64,000 nt of DNA, from NCBI GenBank assembly GCA_030390025.1, contig CM059432.1, positions 43,774,001-43,838,000 on the forward strand. The letters run 5' to 3'. The position numbers and the translations under genes were made by a program. The notes beneath the pieces are model-generated. The model worked only from the letters and a program-made list of their open reading frames with translations, searched no databases and was not told where the DNA came from. This document shows, in pieces, positions 500 through 60,355 of this stretch (position 1 is the first letter of the stretch; each line of letters starts with the position of its first letter). This DNA comes from Squalus acanthias (lineage: Eukaryota).

Positions 500-3400
500 A
501 AAAAGGTTAAAGCTAAAAGTACTATATCTGAATGCACGAAACATTCACAACAAAATAGATGAATTAATAGCCCAGATAGAAATAAATAGGTTTGATTTAA
601 TAGCCATTACAGAGGTGTGGTTGCAGAGTGACCAAGGTTGGGAACTAACTATTCCAGGATATTTGACTTTTAGATGAGACAGGCAGAATGGAAAAGGAGG
701 AGAGTTAGCCCTGATAATAAAGGAGGAAATAAAAACAGTAGAGAGAAAGGATCGTGGCTTGGAAAAACAAAACAGAATCAGTTTGGGTGGAGCTAAGAAA
801 CAACAAGGGGCAGAAAACACTAGTGAGAGTAGTCTATAGGCCCCCTAACAGTGGTTGTAGTGTCGGGCAGAGTATAAATTGGGAAATTAGAGATTCACGT
901 AACAAGGGTAATACAGTAATCATGGGGGACTTTAACTTTCATATAGACTGGGCAAACCAAATTTGCAGAAATAGTGCAGAGAAAGAGTTCATGGAATGCA
1001 TTCAAGATAGTTTTCTAGATCAGTATGTCAAGGAACCTATGAGGGAATTGGTTATTTTAGATCTAGTACTGTGCAATGAGACAGTGTTAATTAATAACCT
1101 TGTAGTAAAGGAGCCTCTGCGGAGCAGTGATCATAATATGATAGAATTTTATGTTGAGTTTGAGAGTGATTTAGTTAAGTCTGAAACTAGGGTCCTAAAC
1201 CTGAGCAAAGCAAACTACGTAGGTATGAGAGGTGAGTTGGCTAAGGTCGGTTGGGAAGCTAAATTAAAACATATGACAGTAGTAAAGCAATGGCAAACAT
1301 TTAAAGAAATAATTCATAATTGGCAATGAATATACATTCCCTTAAGGAATAAAAACACCACAGGAAAAATGGTCCAACCATGGCTAACAAGAGAAATTAA
1401 AGATAGCATTAGATTAAAGGAAGAGGCTTATAATGTTGCCAAAAAGAGTAGTAAGCCTGAGGATTGGGAGTATTTTAGAATTCAGCAAAGGAGGACCAAG
1501 AAATTGATAAAGAAAGGGAAAATAGAATATGAGAGTAAACTAGCGAGAGACATCAAAACAGACTGAAAAAGCTTCTATAGGTATGTAAAAAGGAAAAGAT
1601 TAGCGAAAGAAAACATGAGTCCCTTACAGGCTGAGACAGGAGAAATTATAATGGGGAATAAGGAAATGGCATAGAAATTAAACAAATACTTTGGCCGCGA
1701 TTTTACCAGTGCTCAGAGGGCAGGTTTGGAGGTGGGTCATAGGTTAAATTCATTTTGATTGATGGCGGGTTCCGATCCCGCCGTCAACCCACCTCCAAAC
1801 AGCTTTCCCAAGTGTTGGGTCCCCGATTTGCGAATGGACCTGACACCTAGCAGCGGGAAGTGGATTAAAGGCAATTACCTGCCTATTAACAGGTACTTGC
1901 CAGTAGTTGTCAGCCTATTTTTGGATTTTCCGCTTCTGGCTCGGGTTTCCCAACTTCCGGACACCACACCAGGTAAGTGTGGTGTGTTGTGAGTCTGCTG
2001 TAATGTTTCTGGATTGATGACAGCTGCAGAAGTGGTGTGAAGGATCCAATGTTGCACATGGTGAGTCTCAGAGGAAAGAAAATGTTGGGTACTGCATTTT
2101 TAATACATTTACAGATTTCTTTAGCTTACAAGTTTTAAATCCATGTCCAGCGCCACCTCATTGGGAAAACCTCTCTCACCAGTGACAGATCGCTTCTGTC
2201 ATCTCACCTGCAGCTGCGATCTATTCCAGCCTATGGAGGGAGTCATTGGAGAGCCTGGGTGCAAGAGTTCACCTTTGTGCAGTGATTGTCAGTGTTTTCA
2301 GCACCTCAATGCTGTCAAACACTGAGAAATCAACTGTCAAAATAAAATTGTACGTGATCCCTTTAAGGAAACCAGCAGATGACATGTCATCAAATGACAT
2401 CATCTGACCTGCTTCCTATTAACTGGCTGGCAAGCCCGCAGGGCGGGCTTAACAAGGTCAATCAAGGGAAAATCACGTCTGTGGAGTGGAAGCAGCTGGG
2501 GGCAGGACCGGAAGTCGAAAACCAGCTGACCCGCACTCAACCCACCTCCATTAATAAAATCGCGGCCTGAGTGTCTGTCATCACGGAAGAAGACTCAAAA
2601 ACTTCCCGGAAATAGTGGAGAACCAAGGGTCTAGCGAGAATGAGGAACTGAAAGAAATTAGTATTAGTAAAAAAAAAGTTCTGGAGAAATTAATGGGACT
2701 GAAATCCGATAAATCCCATAGCCCTGATGGCCTACATCCTAGGGTTTTAAGAGAGGTGGCTATAGAGATAGTGGATGCATTGGTTGTCATCTTCCAAAAT
2801 TCCATAGATTCTAGAACGGTTCCCATGGATTGGAAGGTAGCAAATGTAACCCCACTATTTAAGAAAGGAGGGAGAGAGAAAACGAGGAACTACAGACCAG
2901 TTAGCCTGACATCAGTAGTAGGGAAAATGCTAGAATCTATTATTAAGGACATGGTAACAGGGCACTTAGAAAATAATAATAGGATTGGGCAGAGTCAACA
3001 CGGATTTATGAAAGGGAAATCATGTTTGACAAATCTGTTAGAGTTTTTTGAGGTTGTAACCAGCAGAATAGATAAGGGGGAACCAGTAGATGTGGTATAT
3101 TTGGATTTTCAGAAGGCATTCGATAAGGTGCCACACAAGAGGCTATTAAACAAAATTAGGGCTCATGGATTGGGGGTAATATACTAGCATGGATTGAGGA
3201 TTGGTTAATTGACAGAAAACAGAGAGTAGGAAAAAACGAGTCCTTTTTGGGTTGGCAGGCTGTAACTCGTGGGGTACCGCAGGGATCAGTGCTTGGGCCT
3301 CAGCTATTCACAATCTCTATCAATGATTTAGATGAGGGGACCAAATGTAATATATCCAAGTTTGCTGATGATACAAAGCTAGGTGGGAATGTAAGTTGTG

Positions 3401-4155
3401 TGGAAGATGCAAAAAGGCTTCAAGGGGATATAGACAAGCTAAGTGAGTGGGCAAGAACATGACAAATGGAATATAATGTGGAGAAATGTGAAGTTATCCA
3501 CTTTGGTAGGAAAAATAGAAAAGCAGAGTATTTTTTAAATGGTGAGAGATTGGGAAATGTTGGTGTTCAGAGGGACCAGGTTGTCCTTGTACACGAATCA
3601 CTGATAGTTAACATGCAGGTACAACAAACAATTCGGAAAGCAAATGGTATGTTGGCCTTTATTACAAGAGGATTTGAGTATAAGAGTAAAGACGTCTTAC
3701 TGCAATTATATAGGGCCCTGGTGAGACCACACCAGTTTTGGTCTTCTTACCTAAGGAAGGATATACTTGCCATAGAGGGAGTACAACGAAGGTTCACCAG
3801 ACTGATTCCTGGGATGGGGGGATTGTCCTATGAGGACAGATTGAGTAGACTAGGCCTATATTCTCTGGAGTTTAGAAGAATGAGAGGTGATCTCATTGAA
3901 ACATACAAAATTCTTACAGGGCTTGACAGGGTAGATGCAGAGAGGATGTTTCCCCTGGCTGTGGAGTCTAGAACCAGGGGTCACAGTCTCAGAATAAGGG
4001 GTTGGCCATTTAGGACTAAGATGAGAAATTTCTTCACTCAGAGGGTGGTGAATCTTTGGAATTCTCTACCCCAGAGAGCTGTGGAGGCTCAGTCGTTGAG
4101 TATATTTAAGACAGAGATCGGTAGATTTTTGGATATTAAGGGACTCAAGGGATAG
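500..4155 (+). pseudogene. CR1 ORF2 (APE endonuclease + reverse transcriptase), fragmented by stops, frameshifts and an insertion; start approximate
   Basis: ORF-track pieces 309-677, 754-1329, 1369-1566, 2615-3187, 3247-3462 and 3466-4155 are collinear parts of one EN-RT protein. Confidence 0.93.
1693..2567. mobile_element. Non-autonomous PIF/Harbinger element inside CR1 ORF2
   Basis: 13-bp perfect TIR GGCCGCGATTTTA; CR1 sequence resumes on both sides; right end resembles that of 41874-43634. Confidence 0.85.
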
Positions 4156-6532
4156 GGGGATAGTGTAGGAAAGTGGAGTTGAGGTAGAATCTTATTGAAT
4201 GGCGGAGCAGGCGCGAAGGGCCGAATGGCCTACTCCTGCTCCTATTTCTTCTGTTCTTCTGTTCTTAAAAACATATCTATATTCTTACAGTATCATCTGG
4301 TCAACACCATTAAATCTAGGCCTATATTCAATGGAAATAAAAATCAAAAGAGATGTAAAATGGACTGCCGATTCACTATCACCCATTCTACACTATTGCA
4401 CAATGTCAAAATAACCCCCTATTTCCTTAACTAAACGCTTTCAGTAAATGACGCCACAATTGGAGTGAATAGTGAATATGTAAATCACATTGTTTTTCTT
4501 AACAGTGCCTACTGTATATACTTTGATAGAAAAAAATTACCATAATTGATTAACAACTTCAGCTTGCTTCCACCATGGGAACAACTGGAAGACGTACTGC
4601 ATATGAATCAGAAACTGGAACTGAGAAGTAGCTACACTTGATTTTGAAGCAAACACCAGAACTGAACAGCGCCCTTGTAAGTTCCATATGAACACTTAAA
4701 AACAAGCAATTTATAACGTACGATGCTAACAGTGGTTACTGCCTGCATTACAGTGCTGAAAGATTGCGGCTCTCAGTGTATCTAATATTTTTTTTTTCGA
4801 GTCATCTTTTCCAATGTTTGCAGGATTCAGTACCAGTGTAGCAGAAACCACCTACATCCTATCAGTTAACAATGTTTCCAATGGGAATCCTTGAAAGCAA
4901 CCAATTCCATACAAATTCTCTATGTAGATATAAGAATGTTTATCAGGTTCTCTTATGCCTGTAGATAGACCTCTGTGCAAAGTAAACATTTGACTCCATT
5001 TTAAATGTTATCTGAATGGACTGTATATAAATACCGTAATAAATTGTTGCTACTTTGCAGGGACATCTGTTTGCAATTAATCAAACAGCTGATTGCTATT
5101 CCTTACTGATATTCATCATCCCAGTCACAGCAGTGATTCAAAATGGAAAAGCATGATTTTTAAGTCATAAAATGCAACCAAATGTTTTTACACAATCATA
5201 AAAGCAGAATGTAAGTTTTGATCTCTGAATACAGGATATATTTTGACAAAAATGGAAGTAGTATTTTTTCTTATTGTAGATGTATTTGGTGCCAGTCTGT
5301 CCACTTGAAATATAAAATAATTTGTTCGCCTTGGATGCCACTTCTCTATGCAAGACCAGCACACTCTGGTCCAGAGAGCTTAGGTACTAGCTGGTAACAC
5401 CCGCTGCCCAGATGTGTGCAGGAGCACTGCTGGAATTTAACCAGTTAAACCCCTGTAGCTTACCAAAGTAGTTTCCCGCTGCTTATCCAGCCAGAGCCAT
5501 CCTTCCCTGTTAAGGCATTTGTGTGAAGTGTTATCTGGAACTGAGTGGGAAGAAACCCTGCTCCCACTGACAGGTCTATTCCTCTTGATGCCAACAATGA
5601 ACCAGGTTAGCAGGTCAATCATCGTGTCCTAGAAAACTGCAGTGCTGCCTGGTTTCATGTAGGTTTGCCGAGTCTGATGTATTTAGTTGGAGACTCAAGC
5701 ACAGATCACTCATTGCCCTAGCAGGAGATCTCGGAATCCCTCACTGATGGTCTCTTTCCAAGTGCAAGCTTTATCACATGTTGGATTTTGGAGCTTAGCA
5801 CAATGACTATATATGGCTCACTGGCAGTCTGCAGAGCGGATAATCCTTGTGGGCACTGCATTATCCAATTGTGTAACCATTGCTTGCATCCTGCCCTGCA
5901 AAGAGGTAAATGACTCGTGCATCTATTCAAGCTTTTGAAATATTGTCCATTTCAACCAGTACCGTAACAATGCTAGGCCGCATTCATCAACATCTAGCCC
6001 TTCGTCAACCCTCACATCTACACCTTTCTCATTGTGTGAAATGATTCGCCCTGTGTATATTCTTCTAAGTCTATGCACCTCCCAGGAAGTGTTTGTCTGG
6101 ACTGTTGTCTGCTTCAAATGATGATGAAACAAGGTGCTGTGGTAAGGCCCATTGCTTAGAGAGCTTAGCTTGCAGCTCTGGTTTCACCATTACTGTCATA
6201 ATAAGAAAAGAGCATATGATAAGCACGTGTGGATATTTTGCCATGTTGTAATTACACAGAAAATACATAACACACTTCACAGCACTCTACATTCATTGTT
6301 TCAACTTGCTGAAACACAACTGCACTGAAAAGATGGATGAGTTCAATTAACCAAGTTTCTCTCTCCCATCCAATGACTCCCCATTATCATTTTTTTGAAG
6401 GGGGTGAGATGGGGTGGCTTGCTGATACCCTCTGCCCATCTATGCTTAGTTTTAGAATTTTGACTGCTTCCAACATCATTTGCATAAGTGAACCACAGGG
6501 TAGATTTAACAAATTTATGCTCCTGGCACAAA

Positions 6533-8137: not shown

Positions 8138-9073
8138 GAAATCTCTCTACTGTATTGAGTTAGCATAGCCCAGGGCTAATAATTGCCCTATTTAACAGTA
8201 ATATTGAGCACCAAAACTTACATAGGATTCCCACTATGTCTCCTGTTAACCCCAAAGGCAGACAATATTAAATACTAGATCCACTTCATACAGGCTGAAA
8301 CTACTCATCATAGAAACACATAAAAGTTACAACATGGAAACTGTCCATTTGGTCCAACCAGTCCATGTCAGTGTTTACCCTCCACATGAGCAAACAATCC
8401 TGATCACATTTACTTGCACCATTCTCATATCCCTTTAATCGTTTATCATTCATTCAACTATCCAATCTAATCTTGAATATTGACATAGTTTCTGCCTCAA
8501 CCATTAACCCTGGAATGAATTCCTTAGTCTCAGAACTATGTAAAGAGGTATATCTTTGTTTTAAATGTCTTGCATCTATGGCCCCTCATTTAGATCTCTC
8601 TACTACTTAAAATAGGCTGCTTCTAGCTACACTACCCATCGTTTCATAATTTTAAACACTTCTATAACATAACGTTGTAACCTGTGCTGTTCTAATAAAT
8701 AAACAATATTTTAAGGGGGCAAAATTCATTATCGCCCAGGAATGGGCGCTAACTTATGAAAAATTTGAGATTTAGCTCCAGGCGCTAATGAATCTCGCTG
8801 CAAGCAAAACTAAGTGTCATCGCTCAAAGAAAGGATGGGAGCGCTAAATCAAGCGCTCACGGCCTAGCTCAGTGGCGATAGACTCAAAGCTCTAAGCAAT
8901 ATCAGGTGCAGTCTAATCGCTAGTCATCATTGCCACAGGCTCTTTCCAGTTCTTAAAGGGGAGGTTCAATCATGTAGCAGAACCTCATTCTCAGCATTGC
9001 TGGTTCTGCAGCTATCTCAGCAAGCAGCAGAAGGCCAAGGAGAAGGAACCAGACCATTGAAGGAGGTGTCATT

Positions 9074-11303
9074 ATGGCAGATCCACAACCCAGGGAGAGA
9101 GCCTGCAGATTCTGCGATGAAGCACTGGAGGCTTTGGTTTTCGCTGTGGAGGGATGGAGGGCGGTGCTCTACCCGGCAAGTGGCAGGAGGCCCTCGCCAC
9201 AAGTCTTCCGCACCATGTGGAGGGAGGTAGCCCAGCAGGTCTCGGGCAGCACTGTGGTCCCCAGAACCCACACACAGCGCAGGAAGAAATTTAACGACCT
9301 CACTCAGGTGGTCAGTGTGACTGCATGCTTCAACAAATGCTACATACCACCACCTGAACCACACTCTTCACACACTGCCCAAAGCACCACAGCCCCAGCA
9401 CTCACCCACCAACAATCTCTACCGACCAACACTCACACCCACATCTCACACCTTGCACACAATGACAGCTATTCAACTATGGCAGGCACATCTCCCAAAC
9501 ACACAGCTCCACACTCACTCACACACTTTCCTTTCTCTTGCAGGCCAAGGTCGCTCACAACAGGAGGGAGCAGGAGCGCACAGGCGGGGTCAACCTCATA
9601 CCCAACTACAAGATGCACTGCAGCAACTCACCAAGGCTTCTTCGGCAGCACCTCTCAAACCCACGACCTCTACCACCTAGAAGGACAAGGGCAGCAGGCG
9701 CATGGGAACACCACCACCTCCAAGTTCACCTCCAAGTCACACACTATCCTGACTTGGAAGTATATCGCTGTTCCTTCATTGTCGCTGGGTCAAAATCCTA
9801 GAACTCCCTACCTAACAGCACTGTGGGAGCACCTTCAGCACACGGACTGCAGCGGTTCAAGAAGGCGGCTCACCACCACCTTCTCGAGGGCAATTAGGGA
9901 TGGGCAATAAATGCTGGCCTTGCCAGCGATGCCCACATCCCATGAACGAATAAAAAGAAACACTTTCTGAGCTGGAGGAAAGAGTGCTGCAAATCACTGG
10001 GTGCCAGGTGGTGGGCGCCGTGGCCACCGGCGACGTTGACCCCCTTGGGGACAACAACGGTATGTTCATCCCTACTCCTTCTTCTCAAATCCCACTTCTC
10101 CCTCACCCCACAAGCCTTTCCCACTTTCCAGCTAATCATGCTGTATGCATGCATTTCTCTCTTCCTGCCCCCCTCCCCTCACCTTAACCTGACTCTTGTG
10201 CCTTTATGCTTTCAGATAATGAGCAAGCACCTGAACAGCACTGTTGAGAGCGAGGCGGGAGAAGAGGTGGAGGAAGAACACACCACGTCACTGCATGTCT
10301 CACCCACAGGCACCAGCTCAGATACTGGCACTAAGCGTTCTTTAGCGGCTAGTATAGTAGCGGGATCTGCACAGGGTGCTGCACCGGGGACGAGTGGGCT
10401 GCAGCAAGGCCAAGGGGATAGGGTAGCTCAGGAGTCAGCTCCCCGGAGGGCGAGTTCGCGCATGAGTTCTGTTGCACAGGACTCAGATGAGGACCTCAAT
10501 GGGGAGGCCTTTAGAAGAAGGGTGATGGGCATGCACACGGAGATGATAGGTGCAATGGCAAGGGTGCCCGAGAGCCTCTCGGCAATGGTAAGGAGTGTGG
10601 ATGAGTTCACCTCCAACATTGCACAGAGCTCTGCGCACACCATGGAGCCCATCATTTGCAGTCTGCAAAGAATGGTGGTCTCCCAGAGAAACCATGGCGA
10701 CCCAGACCTCATGCCGCGTGTGATGGGCGATGTCGTAGCTTCCATTGCAGCACAGGCGGAAGCCACGCAACGTCTTAGTGCTGTAATGCAGTCTATGCTT
10801 GGTGCCATCGAATCTCAGACTGCTCTCACGCAGTCTCAGCTTGATGCCACGCAAGCTCTGACTGCTGCCATCGTGGCTGGGTCGACCACCGTCCACCGGG
10901 GCTTTCACGGTGTCGCAGCAGGCCAGCAATCTGTGCTCCAGCAGATTGGTAGTGATGCTGAGGTGCTGCCCCGGGGGAGTGGCAGTGGGTCAGTGGAGCA
11001 GGACCTGCTGTCCTCTCTCAGGATGACAGCATTCCTGCTCCCACCACTGCCACTCTGCCATTGCCCTTGTCGCTGCCTGTAATCCAGCCAGCCCAGACCG
11101 CTGCTGCCCATGCTGAGGTGGTGCAGTGTACAGCCGGGCATTCCAGGGCCACAGCTGGTCGAGGGCATCCTGTAAGGCCATCTGAAGTCTCCCACATGGA
11201 CACGCAGCAGCTTTCCACCTGCCATGCTGCACTTCGTAGGAACACTAGAGTAGGCAAAGGCACAGTAACAAGAGGCACTAAGCGATTGCACAAGGGTGAA
11301 TAG
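9074..11303 (+). pseudogene. Harbinger Myb/SANT-like DNA-binding protein gene; predicted exons 9074-9316, 9544-10059, 10216-11303
   Basis: RF..EALEALV...W.EVA..V...RT..Q.RKKFNDL and REQERTGG motifs; GT-AG introns at the same positions as in H2 and H3; frameshifts and a LINE insertion in exon 2. Confidence 0.85.
9604..9960 (+). mobile_element. 3' end of a non-LTR retrotransposon (CR1/L2-group, distinct from the CR1 families here) inserted in Myb exon 2
   Basis: Encodes YKMHC...YRCSFIVAGSKS*NSLP...; ends in an A-rich tail; same family as 21846-23540. Confidence 0.8.
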
Positions 11304-31430: not shown

Positions 31431-32604
31431 ATGGGGGCTGCACTGAATCGGGGCGTTGTCCTGCACCTGCAGAATCGGAGGCAGTAGAGGCGCAGAGAGA
31501 GTGGCAAACATGGCCAGAGGGAGGAGGGCCAACAGGCCTCTGCACAGGAGACCTTACCCTCCGAGGGTATTCAGGGAGCAGTTCTCATAACTTCATTTGT
31601 CTGAGGAGCAGTGTTTGTTCAGGCTGTACTTCAGCAAGGAGGTGGTCACTGAGCTCTGCCACCTGCTGCAACCAGATCTGCAGCCTCAACTGAGGACCAG
31701 GACGTCTCTGTCTCTGGCAGTGAAGGTGACAGTGGCTCTGAATTTTTATGCCAGCGGTTCCTTTCAAGCTTCTACTGGGGACATCGCCAATGTCTCCCAG
31801 TTCGCTGCCCATTGTTGTATCCGGGAGGTGACAAATGCCCTGTATAAAAGGAGACGCCAGTACATCTCTTTCTCCATGACCCGGGGCAAGCAGCACAAAC
31901 GCGCATGTGGCTTTGCTAGGATAGCGGGCTTCCCCATGGTGCAGGGCGCCATTGATTGCACGCATGTGGCATTGTGGGCACCGCATGAAAATGCAGAGGT
32001 ATTCCGAAACCGCAAGGGCTACCACTCCTTAAATGTGCAGTTGGTCTGTGACCACAGACAGCTCATACTCGCCGTCAATGCCCGCTATCCTGGCAGCAGC
32101 CATGATGCTTTCATCCTGCGCCAGACTGGTGTGCCAGACCTTTTCCAGGCACCGCATCACTCAAGTGGATGGCTCCTCGGGGACAAGGGTTATCCACTCT
32201 GCACCTGGCTGATGACACCGCTCCGTAACCCCAACACCCCTGCCGAGCTGCGGTATAATGAGAGCCATAGCGCCACCAGCAACATAATTGAGCAGACGAT
32301 CGGCATGCTGAAGCAACGGTTCTGCTGTCTGGACCACTCAGGAGGAGCCCTGCAGTACTCTCCTGAGCGAGTCTCCCTGTTCATAGTTGTGTGCTACATG
32401 CTTCACAACCTTGCAATCCAGAGGACCCAGCCAATGCCACCAGGGATTGGTGCACCAACTGAGGAGGGGGAGGAGTAGGATGAGGAGGAAGAGGAGGAGT
32501 AGGATGAGGAGGAGGATCAGCAGCAGCTCCAACGTGGGAGGGAGGTGCACAATGTTGCCAGTGCAAGGGCCGTCCGTGAACGGCTGATAAGAAGCTGCTT
32601 CTAG
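31431..32604 (+). pseudogene. Harbinger DDE transposase of H2; catalytic core still open over 31597-32478
   Basis: GAIDCTH, NRKGYHSLNVQLVCD, YPGSSHD, LLGDKGY, IEQTIGMLK, LHN; stops in the N-terminus and the poly-Glu tail. Confidence 0.95.
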
Positions 32605-45139: not shown

Positions 45140-47393
45140 ATTTTATATTGAGTTTGAAAGTGATTTAGTTAAATCCGAAACTAGGTCCTTAAATCTAAAC
45201 AAAGCAAACTACATAGGAATGAGGGGCAGTTGGCTAAGGTAGATTGGGAAACTACATTAAAAGGTATGACGGTAGACAAGCAATGGCTAGCATTTAAAGA
45301 ATTAATGCATAATTTACAACAAATATACATTCCTTTAAGGCACAAAAACTCCACAGGAAAAGTGGTCCAACCGTGGCTAACAAGAGAAGTTAAAGATAGT
45401 ATTAGATCAAAGGAAGAGGCTTATAATGTTGCCAAAAAGAGTAGTAAGCCTGAGGATTGGGAGGATTTTAGAATTCAGCAAAGGAGGACCAAGAAATTGA
45501 TAAAGAAAGGGAAAATAGAATATGAGAGTAAACTAACGAGAGACATAAAAACAGACTGTAAAAGCTTCTATAGGTATGTAAAAAGGAAAAGATTAGCAAA
45601 AGTAAATGTGGGTCCCTTACAGGCTGAGACAGGAGAAATTATAATGGGGAATAAGGAAATGGCTGGGAAATTAAACAAATACTTGTGTCTATCTTTACGG
45701 ACGAAGACGCAAAAAACTTCTCGGAAATAGTGGAGAACCAAGGGTCTAGCGAGAATGAGGAACTGAAAGAACTTGATATTAGTAAAAAAAAAATAGTTCT
45801 GGAGAAATTAATGGAACTGAAAGCCAATAAATCCCCTGGACCTGCTGGTCTACATCCTAGGGTTTTGAAAGAGTTGGCTATGGAGATAGTGGATGCATTG
45901 GTTGTCATTTTCCAAAATTCCACAGATTCTAGAACAGTTCCCGCAGATTGGAAGGTAGCAAATGTAACCCCAATATTTAAGAAAGGAGGGAGAGAGAAAA
46001 AGGGAAACTACAGACCAGTTAGCCTGACATCAGTAGTAGGGAAAACGCTAGAATCTATTATTAAGGACGTGGTAACAGGACACTTAGAAAATAATAATAG
46101 GATTGGGCAGAGTCAACACGGATTTATGAAAGGGAAATCGTGTTTGACAAATCTGTTAGTTTTCTGAGGTTGTAACTAGCAGAATAGATAAGGGGGAACC
46201 AGTGGATGTGGTTTATTTGGATTTTCAGAAGGAATTCGATAAGGTGCCACACAAGAGGTTATTAAACAAAATTAGGGCTCATGGGATTGGGGGTAATATA
46301 CTAGCATGGATTGAGGATTGGTTAATGGACAGAAAACAGAAAGTAGGAATAAACGGGTCATTTTCGGGTTGGCAGGCCGTAACTAGTGGGGTACCACAGG
46401 GATCAGTGCTTGGGCCTCAGCTATTCACAATCTACATCAATGATTTGGATGAGGGGACCAAATGTAATATATCTAAGTTTGCTGATGATACAAAGCTGGA
46501 TGGGAATGTAAGTTGTGAAGAGGATGCAAGGAGGCTTCAAGGGGATATAGACAGGCTAAGTGAGTGGACAAGAACATGGCAAATGAATATAAAGTGGAGA
46601 AATGTGAAGTTATCCGCTTTGGTAGGAAAAATAGAAAAGCAGAGTATTTTTTAAATGGTGAGAGATTGGGAAATGTTGGCGTTCAGAGAGACCTGGGTGT
46701 CCTTGTACACAAATCACTGAAAGGTAACATGCAGGTACAGCAAGCAATTAGGAAAGCAAATGGTATGTTGGCCTTTATTACAAGAGGATTTGAGTATAAG
46801 AGTAAAGACGTCTTACTGCAATTATATAGGGCCCTGGTGAGACCACACCTGGAGTACTGTTTTGGTCTCCTTACCTAAGGAAGGATATACTTGCCATAGA
46901 GGGAGTGTAACGAATGTTCACCAGACTGGTTCCTGGGATGGGGGGATTGTTCTACGATGAGAGATTGTGTAGACTAGGCCTATATTCTCTAGAGTTTAGA
47001 AGAATGAGAGGTGATCTCATTGAAACATACAAAATTCTTAGAGGGCTTGATAGGGTAGATGCAGGGAGGATGTTTCCCCTGGCTGGGGAGGCAAGAACCA
47101 GCGGTCACAGTCTCAGAATAAGGGGTCAGCCATTTAGGACTGAGATGAGGAGAAAGTTCTTCACTCAGGTGAATCTTTGGAATTCTCTACCCCAGAGGGC
47201 TGTGGAGGCTCAGTCGTTGAGTATATTCAAGACAGAGATCGATAGATTTTTGGATATTAAGGGAATCAAGGAATATGGGGATAGTGCAGGAAAGTGGAGT
47301 TGAGGTAGAAGATCAGCCATGATCTTATTGAATGGCGGAGCAGGCTCGAAGGACCAAATGGTCTACTCCTGCTCCTATTTCTTATGTTCTTAT
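45140..47393 (+). mobile_element. 5'-truncated CR1 family A
   Basis: Collinear and highly similar to 1147-4260; RT motifs; frameshifts. Confidence 0.95.
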
Positions 47394-48248: not shown

Positions 48249-49360
48249 ATGGGTGCACTAGTAGGAACTCTCCCTAGAATACAGCATGACTTGGAGAATG
48301 AACAGAGGCCATGCAGAGTAGGACAAGCTGCTAGAAGAGGGAGGAGGAGGAGGAAGAGAAGGGCTCTCAGCAGGAGGCCATATCCACCCAAGGTGTTCAG
48401 GGAGCAATTCTCCTATCTGAACCTCAGCAAGGAACAATGTGTGAGACATCTGCACTTCTGTAAGGACGTCCTCACTGAAATCTGCCACCTGCTGCAGACA
48501 CAACCTCAGAGCAGGGCAGGAATCACATTTCCAGTGACTGTGACAGTGACCGTGGCGATGAACTTTTATGCGACTGGCTCCTTCCAGGTTGGAGTTGGAG
48601 ATATTTGCAACATCTCACAGTTTGCTGTCCACTGTTGTGTAAGGGAGGTCACTGAGGCTCCCCATTCAAAGAGAGCTGGCTACATTCCATTCTCTCTTAC
48701 CAGAGACCAGCAGGTGGAGCGAGCACACGGCTTTGCGAGGATTGCAGGTTTCCCCATGGTGCAGGGTGCCATTGACTGCACGCACATCGCTTTGCGGGTG
48801 CCGCATGTCAACTCTGTCATATACCGGATCTGAAAGGGATTCCACTCCCTCAACGTCCAGCTGGTGTGCGACCATAGGCAGCGAATGATGCAGGTCAATG
48901 CCCGGTATCCTGACAGAGACCTTATGCCTTCATTCTGCAGCAGTCCGCAGTGCCAGTTGCATCTGAGCCACCACGGCAAACCAAAGGGCGGCTACTGGGT
49001 GACAAGGGCTATCCACGGATGACATGGCTCCTGACTCCAGTTCGCAATCCATGCACACGTGCAATGAAAGCCATGCTACCACACAGAATGTGATAGAGCA
49101 GACCAATAGCATGCTGAAACAACGCTTCCACTGCCTGAACTGCTCTGGAGGAGCCCTGCAGTACTCGGCAGAGTTGGTGTCAAATTCGTGGTGGTCTGCT
49201 GCACAACCTCGCCATCATGAGGGCACAGCCCTTGCCACCAGCTATACGGCGAGCAGCTGAGGAAGAGGAGGAGGAGGAAGAGGAAGGGAGAAGGTAACCT
49301 AGACAGCCCGTTTCTGCCTGGGCTGTCCGTGAACAACTTATCCGAGTGCGACACGAGTAA
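48249..49360 (+). pseudogene. Harbinger DDE transposase of H3
   Basis: RRPYPPKVFREQFSYL, GFPMVQGAIDCTH, LLGDKGY, IEQT..MLKQRF, poly-Glu; stops and frameshifts. Confidence 0.92.
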
Positions 49361-49883
49361 CGGCAGCCCCAATTCCCCATTCACCAACAGTCCCACACCT
49401 TACCTTCCCTCTGTCACTGATCATCACAGCATCCGCTTGGCCGCAATGCAAAAATAAAAACCTCCACACAATAAACATTGCAAACCAAATTTATAAATCA
49501 AATCATGCCATATTGCATACAGATATCAACTAATCACCCTTGTACATTCCCTCAGTGCCTGTCTTCCATGTGTCTTTGCCTGTCCTAGTAGTCTATGCAG
49601 TGCTACCCCAGTGTCTGCAGCATGGCTGGTGAAAGGCTGCTGAATTTCAGTGGAGGACACTGCAGATGGCCTTGGAGGACGATCTCAAGCAGCTCTGGGC
49701 CTAGAAGGCCCGGCTGTGGACTGCAACATCTCGGCAAGGGCGGCAGCAGTCTGGGCTGGCTGGCTGACAGGCAACAGCAAGGGCACTGGTGGAATGGTGG
49801 GGTGGGAGGACTAATGCTGTCATCCTGAGAGAGGACAACAGTCTCGTGCTCCACGTGCTGCGAGTGTGAAATCGAGTGATGGT

Positions 49884-50077
49884 TGTCGTAAGAATGAGCC
49901 TTACGCGTGGTGAACTTAAAGTAAGCTTTAATCAACTAAAAAGGTGCTACATACAAAAGAGGTCTTACTCTATGCCTCTCCAGGATCCAACTGATCAGTC
50001 CAGTATTTATCCTGGACTAATCACAGGAAGTGATGCAATAAAGTTCGAGTCACAGGAAGCTGTATTGTGTTACCACA
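49884..50077 (-). repeat. Gypsy 3' LTR
   Basis: Matches 54134-54327 except one C/T; adjacent to the PPT. Confidence 0.97.
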
Positions 50078-50096
50078 TTCTCCCCCCCCCAAAAGA

Positions 50097-53000
50097 TTAG
50101 GAGGCCGGGATGCTCCCTCCATTTCGTAGCCGCTGGACGAGGGAGAGCCGCACCCGTTTGGGTTCTCGTTGCGGTAGAGGGCCCCTAGCCCGTTTACCCA
50201 CCGCGGGCCGTGGACCAGAGTCCGAGTGATCCAGCCCGCTCTGTGAGGTGTCAGGACGATCCTGACTGTGTACTGGTGCCCGAACGGGTGTCGGGCAGGG
50301 CTGTGGCAGATCCGTTTCCGAGCGTACGGTACGGGGTGGATCGTGGCTGCGTGTGCGAGCCCCGACGGGCTCATAGTCAGTCTGCCCCAGGTCGGCACGC
50401 TGGAGTGAGGTACCAGCCGGCGTCAGATCCAGATCGTGATGAGAGGCACCTGGCGAGCCCAGAGATGTGCCTGGTACAATATCATCCCCTGGTGTCTCTC
50501 TATGTTTCGGCGGGCAGGGAGCCAGATCCCGCAATGACACGGTAGATTCCCGACCGTCAGGATACCGAATATAGGCGTAGGTAGGGTTGACGTCAGTGAG
50601 CTCAACTTCATCTACCAGGGGGTCATTCTTAGATGCCCGGACATATCTTCGGAGTAGCACTGGTCCCGGTGCAGTCAGCCACGACGGGAGAGATATCCCA
50701 TAGGATGAGCGACGCTGAAATCGGAAGAACCGTTCATGAGGCGTCGTATTTGTGGCGGTCGAAAGGAGGGACCATGTGGAGTGTAATGCGTCTGGAAGTA
50801 CTGCTTCCCATTGCTGGTTGGGTAGGCCCCGAGATCTCAAAGCCAGACGTACCGCATTCCAGATGATAGCGTTAAAACGCTCGACTTGCCCATTCCCGAC
50901 CGGATGATAAGGCGTCGTTCTGCTGGCAGCAATACCCCGTTCTGAGAGATAGGCCTTGAGTTCTCCTGACATAAAAGAAGGGCCCCGATCCGAATGAACA
51001 TAGGATGCCATGCCACAGAAAGCAAATACCTGCTCAAGGCAGCTGATAACCGTGGTCGTCAGCATATTGGGGCAGGGAAAGGCAAACGGAAAATGGGAAT
51101 ACTCATCGACCATGGTCAACAGATAAGTGTTGCGAGTTGAAGAGGGCAACGGCCCCTTAAAATCGATGCTAAGCCGTTGCATTGGCTGGGTCGCATGTAT
51201 GAGTATACCACCCGAGGGGCGGAAAAACTGAGGTTTCAATTCCGCACAGACTCTGCAGTCCGAGCACATCTTCTTTACATCCCCGGTAGAGAATGGGAGA
51301 TTTCGGGACCGCACGAAGTGTAGCATGCGAGTAACGCCCGGATGACACAACCCATCATGGATGTCTACGAGCGTAGAGGGTGCCATGGCGGAGCAGAATG
51401 CTCGTGAGAGGGTATCCGGAGCCACATTCTCCTTGCCAGGTCGATAGTGGATGGTGTAACCAAAAGAGGCCAATTCCAGCCGCCAAAGCTGGATTTTACT
51501 ATTTTTAATTTTGGTCCGTTTTCGATTATCGAGCATGAAGGCGACTGATCGCTGGTCCGTGATTAAGGTAAAGTGCTGGCGAGCTAGGAGATGACTCCAC
51601 TTCCGTACTGCCTCTATGATGGCTGTAGCTTCTTTCTCGACTGGAGGATAATGTAGCTCAGCCCCTTGAAAAGTCCTGGACAAAAATGCCACCGGACGAC
51701 CTTCCTGATTCAGAGTGGCCGAGATCGCCACCTCCGAGGCATCACACTCAACAACAAAAGCAAGACTCTCATCGATGGAGTGAAGAGCCGCTTTCTCCAA
51801 CTGTTTTTTCAGGAGGTTAAAGGCTGCAACAGCCGCTGTGTCTAGTGGGAATGTGCTGGCCTTCAGTAGAGGTTGGATTCGGTCCGAGAAGTTAGGAATC
51901 CATTTAGCATAGTATGCAAACAGGCCGAGGGCCCGGCACAAGGAGGCCGGATTCTTAGGTGGCGGGAGTTCTTGGAGTGGGCGAAGCCTTTCAGGGTCAG
52001 GTTTAATGATGCCATTGCCCACACAATAGCCAAGGATGTTGATGGTTGGTTGTGACTCAATGGATTTAGCCGCATTTAATGTCAAATTACGGTGCTGGAG
52101 TGCATCCCAAAATCGTTGGAGATTGGCGTCATGTTCCCGCTGATTGCGACCTGCGACAGTAATATTGTCCAGATAAGGAAACGTATCCTTCAAGTCTTCC
52201 TGTTTGACCAGGTCATCCATTGCTCGCTGGAAGACAGCCACTCCATTAGTGACCCCAAAGGGGAGGCGACGAAATTGATACAGCCGTCCATTGGCTTCAA
52301 AGGCCGTATACTGCTTGTCTGAGACCTTCAAGGGTACCTGATGATAGGCACTTTTCAGATCCTATGTTGAGAACACCGTGTACTCAGCCAGTTTATTAAC
52401 CATATCATCGATGCGCGGCAATGGGTATGCGTCCAAGTCCGTATATTGATTGATGGTCTGTGAATAGTCAATGCACAGCCGTTTCTTGTGAGGTTGTAGA
52501 GGGTTCTTAACAATAACGACCTGGGTGCGCCATGGCGACGAACAAGGCTCGATGATATCCTCTGCTAAAAGCTGAGAAATCTCAGCCGCAATAAAAGACT
52601 GGTCTTCCTGACTGAAACGTCGTGACTTTGTTATAATCGGTTTGCATCGAGGAGGGATACTGGTAAACAGTGAGGGTTCATCCAGTGAAGCTGCTGACAA
52701 TGCACAGAACGGTAATCGAGGTCGTATATTAGAAATAGTGAGTTCAGGTTTGGATCCGCCGAACTCAATGGTGAGCTTCCTATGCTGCTTTTGAAAATCC
52801 AGCCCTAAGATAAGATCACTACATAAATCCTTGAGCACCGAAAGCCGGGTAGAGGGATACCTGTGACCATTAAGTGTTATTTCAACCATACAAAAGCCAG
52901 AAATTCTGGTATTAAGTGATGACTGAGCCATCGCAATTGCCTGGTCCGATGGGAAAACATGTAGCTTTAACTCTGCAACAATCTGTTCCCTAATGAAACT

Positions 53001-54055
53001 ATCAGTGCTACCTGAGTCAATTAAGGCATCTAAAGTATGTCCATTAATTGATGCTTTTGTAGCTGCATGGAATAGGTTCTGAGGACAAGCAGCTGTAATT
53101 GGTGTTGTTGCACAAAGAGTGGCTGAAACTCTAGGTGTGTTTCTTCGAGAGGAAACCCGAGAGGAAGCACGATAGATGTTAGCCGGAACATCTTGATAGG
53201 CCCTTACCGGGGCAGTTCGGTAGGACTTAGCTTGATAAGCCCTCGTAGAGGCTTTTGATAGGCAAACCTTTGCAAAATGACCCTTTTTGTTGCAATGACT
53301 GCAAAACGCATTGCGAGCAGGGCAGAATTTCCGAGGGTGAAACTCATCACCACAAAAGAAGCATTTCTTAGATTGCCAAGAGGCTGCCACAGTGGGGTCA
53401 TCATCCTCTTCATCAGTGAAGTCATCAGATTGATCGTCAGGGATAAAGACCTCCCTAATAGAGTTCACCTGTGGCCTCTTAAATTGCCTGACTGTAGTTA
53501 AGGCAGTAGACCGAGGTCTGGGCACTGTATAAAGGTCTGGATTTCTTTTTGCCAGATCTAGAGAGCAAGCCATGTCATAAGCTCTCTGAAGCTCAAGTGT
53601 CTTACTTTCCAGTAGACGCTGGCGTATAAATGGGGAGGCAAGCCCGCAGATGAAAGCATCACGGATCATTTCTTCACGGTACAGCTCAGCTGAGGCCGCC
53701 TGAAAGTTACAGTCCATACTAAGTATCTGCGAAGCTCTTGGAGGAATTTATCAATGGATTCCTCCGGCCCTTGTTGGGCTGTAGCTAGTAGATGTCTGGC
53801 ATAGACCTCATTCGGTGTCTTAGTATATAGTCTCTTAAGCGTCCGAATTGCCTCCTCGTAACTGCCCCATTCCTCCACATACTGAAATACATTCGGGGTG
53901 ACACAGTTGATGAGTATCCGCAACTTTGAGTCATCATCAGCCTTGCAATACTCAAGAAAATTGTCAAACGTGCGATACCAGTGTTTCCACACCTTACCGG
54001 CTGCTGGGGTGTTTGGGTCCAAGTCAAGACGCGATGGTTTAAGGATGTTTTCCAT
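50097..54055 (-). pseudogene. Gypsy gag-pol polyprotein with one frameshift (~53720) and one nonsense codon (52362-52364)
   Basis: Double Cys/His knuckle CFFCG...H...CPA...CSHC..KGH...C; protease LIDSGS; RT *DLKSAYHQ, LPFG, YLDN; RNase H CDAS; integrase HHCC, IDFKGP, HSDRG, GQVER. Confidence 0.95.
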
Positions 54056-54133
54056 GATGGGTGATTCCCTGGATCCTTCGTTCCGAGTTCGTCCAAAAAG
54101 TTTGAGTGTGAAGTTTTCCAAAGTTGATTAAAT

Positions 54134-54327
54134 TGTCGTAAGAATGAGCCTTACGCGTGGTGAACTTAAAGTAAGCTTTAATCAACTAAAAAGGTGCTAC
54201 ATACAAAAGAGGTCTTACTCTATGCCTCTCCAGGATCCAACTGATCAGTCCAGTATTTATCCTGGACTAATCACAGGAAGTGATGCAATAAAGTTTGAGT
54301 CACAGGAAGCTGTATTGTGTTACCACA
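54134..54327 (-). repeat. Gypsy 5' LTR
   Basis: Direct repeat of 49884-50077, upstream of gag on the minus strand. Confidence 0.97.
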
Positions 54328-54967
54328 ATGGTGTGTCTTCATCATCACTGTCTCTTTGCTCTTCCACTACCACCTGGGTAGGTTGCAGTTCTTGGGTATC
54401 TGAAAGGAGAAAGGCACATGGTTAGGGTTGTGGTGAGTGGAGTGGTGGTGGGGGAGTAAGAGGTACATGCTTATAGCATCTGCAGCTTGTAAATCAGAAG
54501 AGATTGTTGAATGAGGGGGAAATGGGATGTGAGAAGGAGGATTAGGTATGACAATACCATTGTTTTTGATGGTTTCAACCCCACCGCTGGCCACGGTCTC
54601 AACAATGGCCGTTCCAATAATGGCCAGCACAATCTCCTCCATGGGGGTTAGGACATGCCTGTCCTGCTTTGGTTAGCTCCTGCTGCCTCCAGTTGTGCGC
54701 CACCTTGTCATGCAAGAGAGAGGAAAGTGTATCAGTGAGTGTCGTGCAATCTGTTTTAGTGATATGGCTGTCATGGTTGAATAGCTGGCAGTATGTGCAA
54801 GCTGCGAGATGTGGGTGTGAGGCTTGCAGCAGTGCTAAGTGTGTGAGGGTGAGGTGAAGCTATGAATGTTAGTTATGAGTCCTGATTGACAGAGATTGTT
54901 GGCAGGTGAGTGATGGGGGTGTGGTGCATTGAGCAATGGCTGAGGCTAGTGGTGCAGTTGGTAGGAT

Positions 54968-55316
54968 AAAAGAACATAAGAACATAAGAAATAGGAGCAG
55001 GAGTAGGCCATTCGGCCCTTCGAGCCTGCTCCGCAATTCAATAAGGTCATGGCTGATCTTCTACCTCATCTCCGCTTTCCTGCACTATCCCCATATCCCT
55101 TGAGTCCCTTAATATTCAAAAAGCTATCGATCTCTGTCTTGAATATACACAACGACTGAGCCTCCACAGCCCTCTGGGGTAGAGAATTCCAAAGATTCAC
55201 CACCCTCTGAGTGAAGAAATTTCTCCTCATCTCAGTCCTAAATGGCCGACCCCTTATTCTGAGACTGTGACCCCTGGTTCTAGACTGCCCAGTCAGGGGA
55301 AACATCCTCCCTGCAT
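54968..55316 (-). mobile_element. CR1 family A 3' fragment in H3 Myb intron 1
   Basis: RMFPL...WNSLPQ translation, UTR and (TTCTTATG)n tail. Confidence 0.92.
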
Positions 55317-59028: not shown

Positions 59029-60355
59029 GGGGGAAAAATTGGGTTGCACCCGCTTTGGGGCGATAACTTCGCCGGGGCACTACTTTTATGGTAGTACCCC
59101 AAGCAGGAGGCGGGGCACTACTGGAAGCGCTCCCATTGAATATCGCGGCGCTACGTGCAGCAGCGCCACACGCGCTGGCACGTAGCATAAGAACATAAGA
59201 AATAGGAGCAGGAATAGGCCACTTGGCCCCTCGCGCCTGCTCCGCCATTCAATAAGATCATGGCTGATCTTGGGCTCAAAGCCGCTTCCCCGCCCGCTCC
59301 CCATAACCCTTCACTCCCTTATCTTGCAAAAATCTGTCGATCTCTCCACGGCTCTCTGGGGCAGAGAATTCCACAGATTTACGACCCTCTGAGAAAAGAA
59401 ATTCCTCCTCATCTCAGTTCTAAAAGGGCGACCCTTTATTCTGAAACTATGCCCCCGAGTTCTAGATTTCCCCACGAGGGGAAACATCCTCTCTGCATCT
59501 ACCTTGTCGAGCCCCCTCAGTATCTTGTATGTTTCAATAAGATCACCTCTCATTCTTCTAAATTCCACTGAGTATAGGCCCAACCTGCTCAACCTTTCCT
59601 CATACGTCAAACCCCTCATCTCTGGAATTAACCTCGTGAACCTTCTCTGAACTGCCTCCAATGCAAGTATATCCTTCCTTAAATAAGGAGACCAAAACTG
59701 TACGCAGTACTCAAGGTGTGGTCTCATCAATACCCTGTAAAGTTGTAGCAGGACTTCCTTGCTTTTATACTCCAACCCCCTTGCAATAAAGGCCAACATT
59801 CCATTTGCCTTTAATCAGGGGAGGGAGGCCTGCAGCGCCGCGGTACTGCAGGCCTTCCTCCCCTGATTAAAGAGGAGGGGCCTAGCGCAGCGTGCACCGG
59901 GACCCTGCTGGACCACCGGGGAGCGGGATGCCGGCAAAAGAGCCTGGCACTCAAGAGGAGTGCCGGGCTGACCGATCATGGCCGGCACCCTGCAGGAGGA
60001 GGCCAGAGAGGGCAGGTGCTGGCAGGCGGCCCAAAAAAAATGGCCGCCCGGCACCTGCCCTTTAATTATTGCTGTCCCGGCCGCAAAAACGCCTCCCTGA
60101 CCCTGTCGGACAGTGTCCGGTGGTAGGTCAGGGGGCACGAGCCAAGTTTGCGGCCGGGGAGCGAGAGAGGCACTGCGCATGGCGATGATGCCATCGGCGG
60201 AGGCGCAGCGCCGTGGAGCGCTACCTGACACCGCCGCCGCTAACCTCCCGCTGAATTTCGCGGGAGGCGTCAGTGGCACCGCGCCCAGGCGCTAGGGAGT
60301 TTGTGCCCCGTTAGCGCCCCCCTCGGGAGGCACAAAGCAACCGAATATTTCCCCC
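59029..60355. mobile_element. Non-autonomous Harbinger element related to 6533-7250 (inverted)
   Basis: TIR GGGGGAAAAATTGGGTTGC / GCAACCGAATATTTCCCCC, TAT TSD. Confidence 0.9.
59186..59811 (-). mobile_element. CR1 3' fragment nested in the Harbinger derivative
   Basis: MLAFIARGLEYKSKE...WNSLPQ; (TTCTTATG)n tail. Confidence 0.92.

Follow-up and report, generated by a model that had tools for sequence, protein, structure and literature searches.

The window analysed here, a 64,000-nt stretch of the Squalus acanthias genome, contains a compact Ty3/Gypsy element of 4,444 bp on the minus strand (54327-49884). Its long terminal repeats (LTRs) form a pair of 194 nt each with one mismatch between them (1/194). 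The TG..CA ends of the LTRs, a target-site duplication, a polypurine tract, and the order gag, protease, reverse transcriptase (RT), RNase H, integrase place the element in Ty3/Gypsy, and the closest solved relative of its RT is the RT of Ty3. The copy is broken, with a shift of the gag frame near 53750-53666 and an in-frame stop in RT at 52364-52362. Read along the element strand, its features are as follows.

54328 to 54332, minus strand: target-site duplication, left copy, ACCAT
54134 to 54327, minus strand: 5' LTR, 194 nt, with TG..CA ends
54254 to 54261, minus strand: TATA-like word GATAAATA, a candidate promoter inside the loop of a short inverted repeat
54239 to 54244, minus strand: TCAGTT, an initiator-like word (TCAKTY, from the accessible text of PMC3601003) upstream of the arm and a candidate alternative RNA start
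54177 to 54187, minus strand: the arm, an 11-nt predicted self-primer
54182 to 54177, minus strand: ATTAAA, a likely poly(A) signal formed by the last six bases of the arm
54164 to 54176, minus strand: hairpin 1 of the predicted fold, 5 bp, beginning at the first base past the arm
54137 to 54155, minus strand: hairpin 2 of the predicted fold, 7 bp, near the LTR end
54133, minus strand: spacer, a single A between the LTR end and the primer site
54122 to 54132, minus strand: primer-binding position, without TGG, an exact complement of the arm
53666 to 54055, minus strand: N-terminal part of gag, with its ATG at 54055
52362 to 53747, minus strand: remainder of gag, aspartic protease (about 53024), and start of RT
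53363 to 53322 and 53303 to 53262, minus strand: the two CCHC knuckles of gag
50097 to 52361, minus strand: RT, RNase H, and integrase, with no match to a chromodomain or SH3_Tf2-1
52175 to 52164, minus strand: RT active-site motif YLDN
50078 to 50090, minus strand: polypurine tract
49884 to 50077, minus strand: 3' LTR, with a copy of the arm at 49937-49927
49879 to 49883, minus strand: target-site duplication, right copy, ACCAT

The rest of the window is rich in repeats (742-4258, 8978-9910, 31591-32478, 45685-47391, 48346-49284, 54975-55316, and 59186-59811). Decayed pieces of non-LTR elements (endonuclease and RT) occur there, with an inverted copy at 91%, alongside short interspersed repeats and frames for Myb and DDE_Tnp_4 of the kind carried by Harbinger-type transposons.

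Past the 5' LTR, the A at 54133 is followed not by TGG but by TTTAATCAACT (54132-54122, minus strand). The exact reverse complement of this 11-mer lies inside the 5' LTR at 54187-54177 (minus strand), 43 nt upstream of the LTR end, and is repeated in the 3' LTR. A first-pass annotation of the window had described both the missing TGG and the complementarity, and had proposed from them that the element primes reverse transcription with its own RNA; both observations were reproduced. Because the site has no TGG, the 3' end of a tRNA cannot fit it. The accessible text of PMC6317226 predicts self-priming where at least 10 nt, starting 0-5 nt past the LTR, are complementary to the LTR, and the element, which has no TGG or site for a tRNA 3' end, shows this arrangement. 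In dinucleotide shuffles of the LTR, an 11-nt match arose by chance in 5 of 20,000.

The duplex between arm and site is present in the predicted RNA fold of 54100-54200 (z = -2.6, with 5 of 200 shuffles equally good), and a longer piece, 54110-54245, retains it but with z = -1.0. The predicted fold is a three-way junction of the duplex, hairpin 1, and hairpin 2, and for the five RNA starts tried the pair probability between arm and site is at least 0.88 at 9 to 10 of the 11 pairs. A CGTAAG/CTTACG hairpin noticed earlier in the enclosed loop is part of this fold, at 54155-54137. A TTAAAG/CTTTAA hairpin, which had been suggested to compete with the duplex, is not favoured at these pair probabilities, and its bases fold instead as the hairpin directly after the arm (54176-54164). 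The ATTAAA reported within the putative primer is indeed there, and in the 3' LTR copy of the arm this hexamer has no pairing partner downstream, the partner existing only past the 5' LTR.

Because the arm starts with AG behind a pyrimidine run, which resembles a 3' splice site, and a GTAAGA further upstream resembles a donor, the primer might be made by splicing inside the LTR. However, the intron would be 33 nt long, the spliced form pairs over 9 nt rather than 11, and in the other families described below the pairing continues into the pyrimidine run. Contigs over the 5' LTR show no such joint, which, for contigs only, is a weak argument. We consider splicing the least probable source of the primer.

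The family to which the element belongs is young, abundant, and recently mobile. Its 40 best matches are 99-100% identical to the element, and the duplex is retained in all 30 copies fetched. LTR-end junctions with the arm number 3,212 in the host genome (G000), over three families that share the 11-mer, and 0 were found with a reversed control. Since these counts and the single difference between the LTRs show that the family moved recently, priming must have worked without a TGG site.

An inverted repeat at this position could also be a by-product, left by template switching between the arms at the DNA level or by chance. Individual host copies bear on this reading. In a comparison directed at primer copying, position 7 of the arm was changed at 15 junctions, with a matching change in the site at one of them. 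A second LTR was in reach at 14 of the 15; the change was in the 5' LTR only in 13, the matched copy included, and the remaining one has the arm change in both LTRs with an unchanged site. One copy, L205 (G000:C3218:47615-47681), carries matching transversions in arm and primer site that are absent from its 3' LTR. A DNA-level template switch, a chimeric copy, or two hits could each have produced L205. Since its two-sided change is missing from the 3' LTR, matching changes in arm and site can in some cases come about in DNA and need no function in RNA. In another copy, L189, the looped part has been lost, the 5' LTR lacking the arm, the loop, and the LTR end. Both copies fit a by-product, whereas the 5 matches in 20,000 shuffles speak against chance for the window element.

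The named homologues of Gag and Pol belong to cnidarians, crustaceans, a tunicate, and a shark. A metagenome scan yielded 80 loci, which with 2 host representatives made 82, and 65 of these, in 21 families, were usable. We dropped 4 loci without a gag-start match, 5 with less than 110 nt upstream, and 8 without an LTR-end anchor; among the last 8 the duplex is present in L082, L102, and L105 and absent from L035, L063, L064, L065, and L086. In 4 of the 21 families and in the third host family, comparison with the 3' LTR fixed the LTR end; in 4 more it agreed to within a few bases, and the remainder rely on a CA-A anchor motif. Each family was represented by its lowest-numbered locus, not its best-scoring one.

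Over the 12 nt after the spacer, the match of a site to its own LTR is at least 11 in 19 of the 21 families and at least 10 in all 21 (at least 11 of 12 in 52 of the 65 loci). Among cross-family pairs of site and LTR, 18 of 420 reach 11. Permuting the LTRs among families gave a total of 181.6 +/- 4.8 against the observed 243, and none of 100,000 permutations was as high. The sequence itself is not conserved, with 19 different 11-nt words among the 21 families. In a covariation alignment, the segment ends of which were picked from the pairing, 92.9% of 336 cells are paired; no shuffle of 500 was as good, and registers slid as a control are 29-46% paired. Two-sided changes occur at 14 of the 16 pairs, and RNAalifold, unprompted, predicts the same 16. 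The shuffle counts overstate significance because the families are related; neither the slid controls nor the range of pair types depends on this relatedness. The first-pass annotation had proposed looking in relatives for compensatory changes between the two 11-mers, and these are clearly present. The pairing is a real feature of the whole lineage. In other families the duplex is typically about 16 bp long (position 16 is paired in 12 of 21 families and position 17 in 3 of 21), and it spans 11-13 bp in the three host families and 11 bp in the window copy.

A second helix starts from the first base past the arm and reaches at least 4 bp in 15 of the 21 families. Its mean length is 4.05 bp, compared with 2.75 +/- 0.23 in 300 shuffles that kept the first four bases, none of which was as high. 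The closing pair is G-U in 13 families and the second pair C-G in 19. Hairpin 2 is similar in the second host family and absent from some invertebrate-type families. Together, the covariation across families and the second helix largely refute the idea that the inverted repeat is a by-product, as a neutral process would not explain why the register at the LTR end is fixed, why there is a second helix, or why actively spreading families lack any tRNA site. We regard such an origin as very improbable.

Covariation demonstrates pairing, not priming, and the sole role of the duplex might be to mask the 5' poly(A) signal, or another role in RNA folding, while something else primes. In favour of this, the arm ends in a canonical hexamer in 14 of the 21 families (ATTAAA in 9, AATAAA in 5), and its partner exists only past the 5' LTR. 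Against this, the partner is always one base past the LTR end, where priming must begin if the LTR end is to be rebuilt, the 7 families that lack a canonical hexamer pair equally well, and the 19 words are fit by no other primer. A duplex without a role in priming thus appears unlikely.

A fragment of a tRNA could pair with the site even though a tRNA 3' end cannot. As a negative control for the self-pairing, we examined 20 other Gypsy copies of the host genome (L164-L183), older TGG-primed families with LTRs of 115-140 nt, which from their motifs, rather than from named references, we take to be Mag-type. The LTR end was resolvable in 7 of the 20; TGG lies 3-4 nt past the LTR in all 7, and their self-match is only 6-8 of 12. 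A search of the host genome for the arm 10-mer in a tRNA context gave 21 exact matches, against 14 in a reversed control. ARAGORN called a tRNA in none of the 21. One of them is a decayed tRNA-Ile(AAU) (L240, G000:C27:12781647-12781721) with a D-loop identical to the arm over 10 letters.

This copy led to the intact tRNA-Ile(AAU) genes of the host. Their commonest D-loop 11-mer, present in 12 of 32 ARAGORN calls (among which overlapping loci may double-count genes), pairs with the site through 9 Watson-Crick and 2 G-U pairs, and one call does so through 10 and 1. A 24-nt 5' fragment of this tRNA, ending in the D-stem, could prime the window family alone or as a back-up, with the arm resembling it by ancestry or chance. 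The two bases behind the D-loop 11-mer (GC) match those behind the arm. When the site was shuffled, an 11/11 partner turned up in only 27 of 2,000 cases among 79 tRNA sequences from about a dozen anticodons, and the word of the window family has the commonest letter at all 11 positions across the 21 families. As an 11-mer the D-loop pairs at -9.3 kcal/mol and the element's own arm at -9.9 kcal/mol, and the whole 24-nt piece at -12.4 kcal/mol compared with -10.5 kcal/mol for a 16-nt own arm. However, the LTR arm has Watson-Crick partners at exactly the two positions where the tRNA wobbles, and the tRNA explanation leaves the exact match to the LTR unaccounted for. The uridines of D-loops are usually dihydrouridine, which pairs poorly. 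The major D-loop 11-mer pairs fully, with G-U allowed, in 4 of the 21 families only, and the own arm is the more stable partner in 21 of 21 (11-mers with a 5-nt flank, against tRNAs of about a dozen anticodons). A tRNA or tRNA fragment complementary to the site was among the findings that the first-pass annotation would have counted against self-priming, and the outcome is divided: a host tRNA fragment does pair with the window site at 11 of 11 positions, two of them G-U, and it fails across the lineage. No single host tRNA fragment in this incomplete sample fits the lineage, which sets it apart from elements of the half-tRNA type. The likeness between the arm and the tRNA-Ile D-arm is possibly due to chance, because initiator-like and hexamer words together with the conserved hairpin can explain most of it; ancestry is a conjecture. 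Priming of the window family by the tRNA-Ile fragment seems to us rather improbable.

Tf1-like self-priming, with a primer taken from the element's own RNA that usually ends in a poly(A) hexamer, is the probable explanation of the duplex, and the compensatory changes across the lineage support the self-priming first suggested for this copy as the best reading of the data. In Tf1, pairing with the primer site involves the first 11 bases, and the RNase H cut falls between bases 11 and 12 (PMC7175516, PMC4600332, PMC6317226, each in its accessible text). By analogy, the arm in the genomic RNA would fold onto the primer site, and the element's RNase H, a domain predicted from its sequence, would cut at the 3' end of the arm (54177/54176), at the foot of the conserved hairpin. 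RT would then extend the arm into a first DNA of 44 nt. Poly(A) sites generally lie 10-30 nt beyond the hexamer. Because the arm usually ends in this hexamer, the stretch of the 3' LTR from hexamer to poly(A) site would give a short overlap for the first strand jump, and the pairing would also shield the 5' hexamer, so that polyadenylation does not occur there prematurely. Against this scheme, the typical duplex of about 16 bp is unlike a fixed 11-nt primer, and 7 of the 21 arms lack a canonical hexamer.

It is also relevant where the RNA begins. The first A of the arm lies within TTAGTT, an initiator-like word with one mismatch to TCAKTY (motif from the accessible text of PMC3601003), which favours a Tf1-like start, judged from the motif. 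A perfect TCAGTT lies 55 nt further upstream. The TATA-like word GATAAATA was found at 54261-54254, where the first-pass annotation had placed it in cautioning that transcription may start before the duplex. It begins 85 nt before the 3' end of the arm, and the corresponding distance is 103 nt in the second host family; because of these distances, transcription may begin far upstream of the arm. Across the 21 families, 7 have a TATA-like word within 200 nt, at no fixed distance, and 14 have none in the DNA available up to 200 nt. In both host families examined, the word lies in or on a short inverted repeat (window 54244-54270 and the LTR of L144). Contigs of six public runs contain no RNA start, end, or poly(A) joint, and as contigs only are evidence neither way. 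The odds that, as in Tf1, the arm itself forms the 5' end of the RNA are about even. Since self-priming needs only a cut at the 3' end of the arm, a 5' extension would alter the comparison with Tf1 and not the mechanism.

The absence of a chromodomain, reported in the first pass, extends beyond this copy: neither a chromodomain nor a Tf2-type SH3 module was found in the element's proteins or among the precomputed domains of the 120 listed homologues (120/120). Of 125 homologues checked (within P0008-P0133), 105 have Asn as the last residue of the RT motif and 15 have Asp, with 5 not parsed. The two states are mixed over the tree, and YLDN is seen in young, multi-copy families. We built trees of RT-RNase H, as had been proposed, with FastTree (157 rows) and in a quick IQ-TREE run (41 rows, SH-aLRT only). 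Chromoviruses are represented in them by two stand-ins, P0231 (Chromo and SH3_Tf2-1) and P0226, with no Tf1 or sushi sequence. All duplex-bearing rows fall on one long branch, joined by YxDD proteins of 37-50% identity, and in the smaller tree 11 duplex rows form one side (SH-aLRT 99-100), apart from P0231, P0226, and the host TGG elements. When the FastTree tree is rooted on retrovirus-like copies (L149-L163, with RT motif YVDD and long RT-integrase spacing, used as an outgroup only), the TGG-primed Mag-type group is the sister of the duplex lineage. Because the trees separate the lineage from chromodomain elements, its position outside Tf1/sushi, with chromoviruses represented by two stand-ins only, is well supported by sequence comparison.

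A relationship to Mag is moderately supported by the same trees, which hold no named references. The lineage shares with Mag (A, B, and C clades) short LTRs, a compact single gag-pol frame, a 5-bp target duplication, and two CCHC knuckles, which are typical of Mag, and the host Mag-type elements are its nearest sampled neighbours in the FastTree tree. In contrast, these host elements have TGG 3-4 nt past the LTR, the RT motif YLDD, and no self-complement, and share 27-31% identity over RT-RNase H. The earlier label "Mag-like" thus holds broadly, although the TGG-primed host elements, at this low identity, occupy a separate branch. With no TGG site and no grouping of its RT with the host Mag-type elements, the lineage would fall outside Mag A/B/C, as represented by those elements. 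The Cigr-1 clade (Ciona intestinalis, also molluscs) is listed under Mag and outside the A/B/C clades in the accessible supplement of PMC6238403, a position that fits that of the lineage in a comparison by description only, and a tunicate protein, P0106, is 62% identical to the element. Membership of Cigr-1 is a lead to follow; the accessible part of PMC6238403 contained no statement on the Cigr-1 primer.

Other assignments were also considered. Saci2/lennie was rejected as the identity of the element, as those elements have 4-bp duplications and a tRNA-Leu site (accessible text of PMC12471100 and PMC4558846). Weak PF24626 matches, taken as candidate host chromoviruses, turned out to be the retrovirus-like copies L149-L163, and the PF16297 profile had no match in the host genome, where its control was equally silent. 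No relatives were found among viral contigs, Rfam gave no match, and the protein atlas returned generic RT clusters only.

Self-priming has been described for Tf1/Tf2, Tj1, Tf1/sushi, Tcn1, and the plant TAR lineage (accessible text of PMC7175516, PMC4600332, and PMC6317226). As in Tf1/Tf2 of Schizosaccharomyces pombe, Tj1 of S. japonicus, Tf1/sushi, and plant Tcn1, the sequence past the LTR is complementary to the LTR and there is no tRNA site, and the match of the window copy is 11 nt, as in Tf1. The differences are that the lineage lacks a chromodomain or SH3_Tf2-1, has two CCHC knuckles and the RT motif YLDN, and forms a separate branch from Tf1/sushi, and that, compared with Tf1, its duplex ranges over 11-16 bp across families and its primer mostly ends in a poly(A) hexamer. 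For the TAR lineage of Ty1/copia (Houba, Osr-1), which belongs to another superfamily in another kingdom, self-priming was likewise predicted from LTR complementarity (PMC6317226, accessible text), and, being outside the chromoviruses, it sets a precedent for a repeated origin.

Most likely, then, the mechanism is of a known kind in a lineage where we found it undescribed, with a distinct design. No description of self-priming in a Mag-related animal lineage was found in the literature covered, which included the accessible text of PMC13524379, PMC6934838, PMC2774666, PMC5006619, and PMC12471100; the search did not reach Butler et al. 2001, the Cigr-1 paper, or Repbase, which could lessen the novelty. 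More tentatively, this may be a large, animal-wide, non-chromovirus lineage that self-primes independently, with a poly(A)-signal primer cut at a conserved helix junction, an RNA starting further upstream, a single fold that both primes and suppresses the 5' poly(A) site, and an RT with mostly Asn for the last catalytic Asp, in which the likeness between arm and tRNA-Ile could be a relic of an ancestor primed by a tRNA fragment.

The mechanism of self-priming is established for a single yeast element, and it commonly counts as a hallmark of Tf1/sushi chromoviruses. An abundant animal lineage that is distinct from these and carries the same signature would mean that the mechanism arose, or survived, more than once. 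It would also bear on whether hairpin priming preceded tRNA priming, as has been proposed (PMC3601003, accessible text). The self-complement accounts for the classification of such elements as lacking a primer site, and the lineage would presumably escape silencing by tRNA 3' fragments. The 21 natural variants with a common helix junction offer material on how RNase H chooses its cut in double-stranded RNA.

Further variants were seen among the host copies. L185 and L203, two distinct copies from the third host family, have two changes of the site in common, and their arms carry no changes to match. In an LTR subfamily about 93% alike, found in runs X1, X5, and X14, there is an extra base at the 5' end of the arm (window 54186), which would give a 12-bp duplex if the primer site is unchanged; no single contig shows both. 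In L187 the LTR start lies directly behind its 5' repeat. Finally, three same-strand junctions at G000:C1:566513-575072 are spaced 4,247 nt apart, forming a tandem array that shares LTRs.
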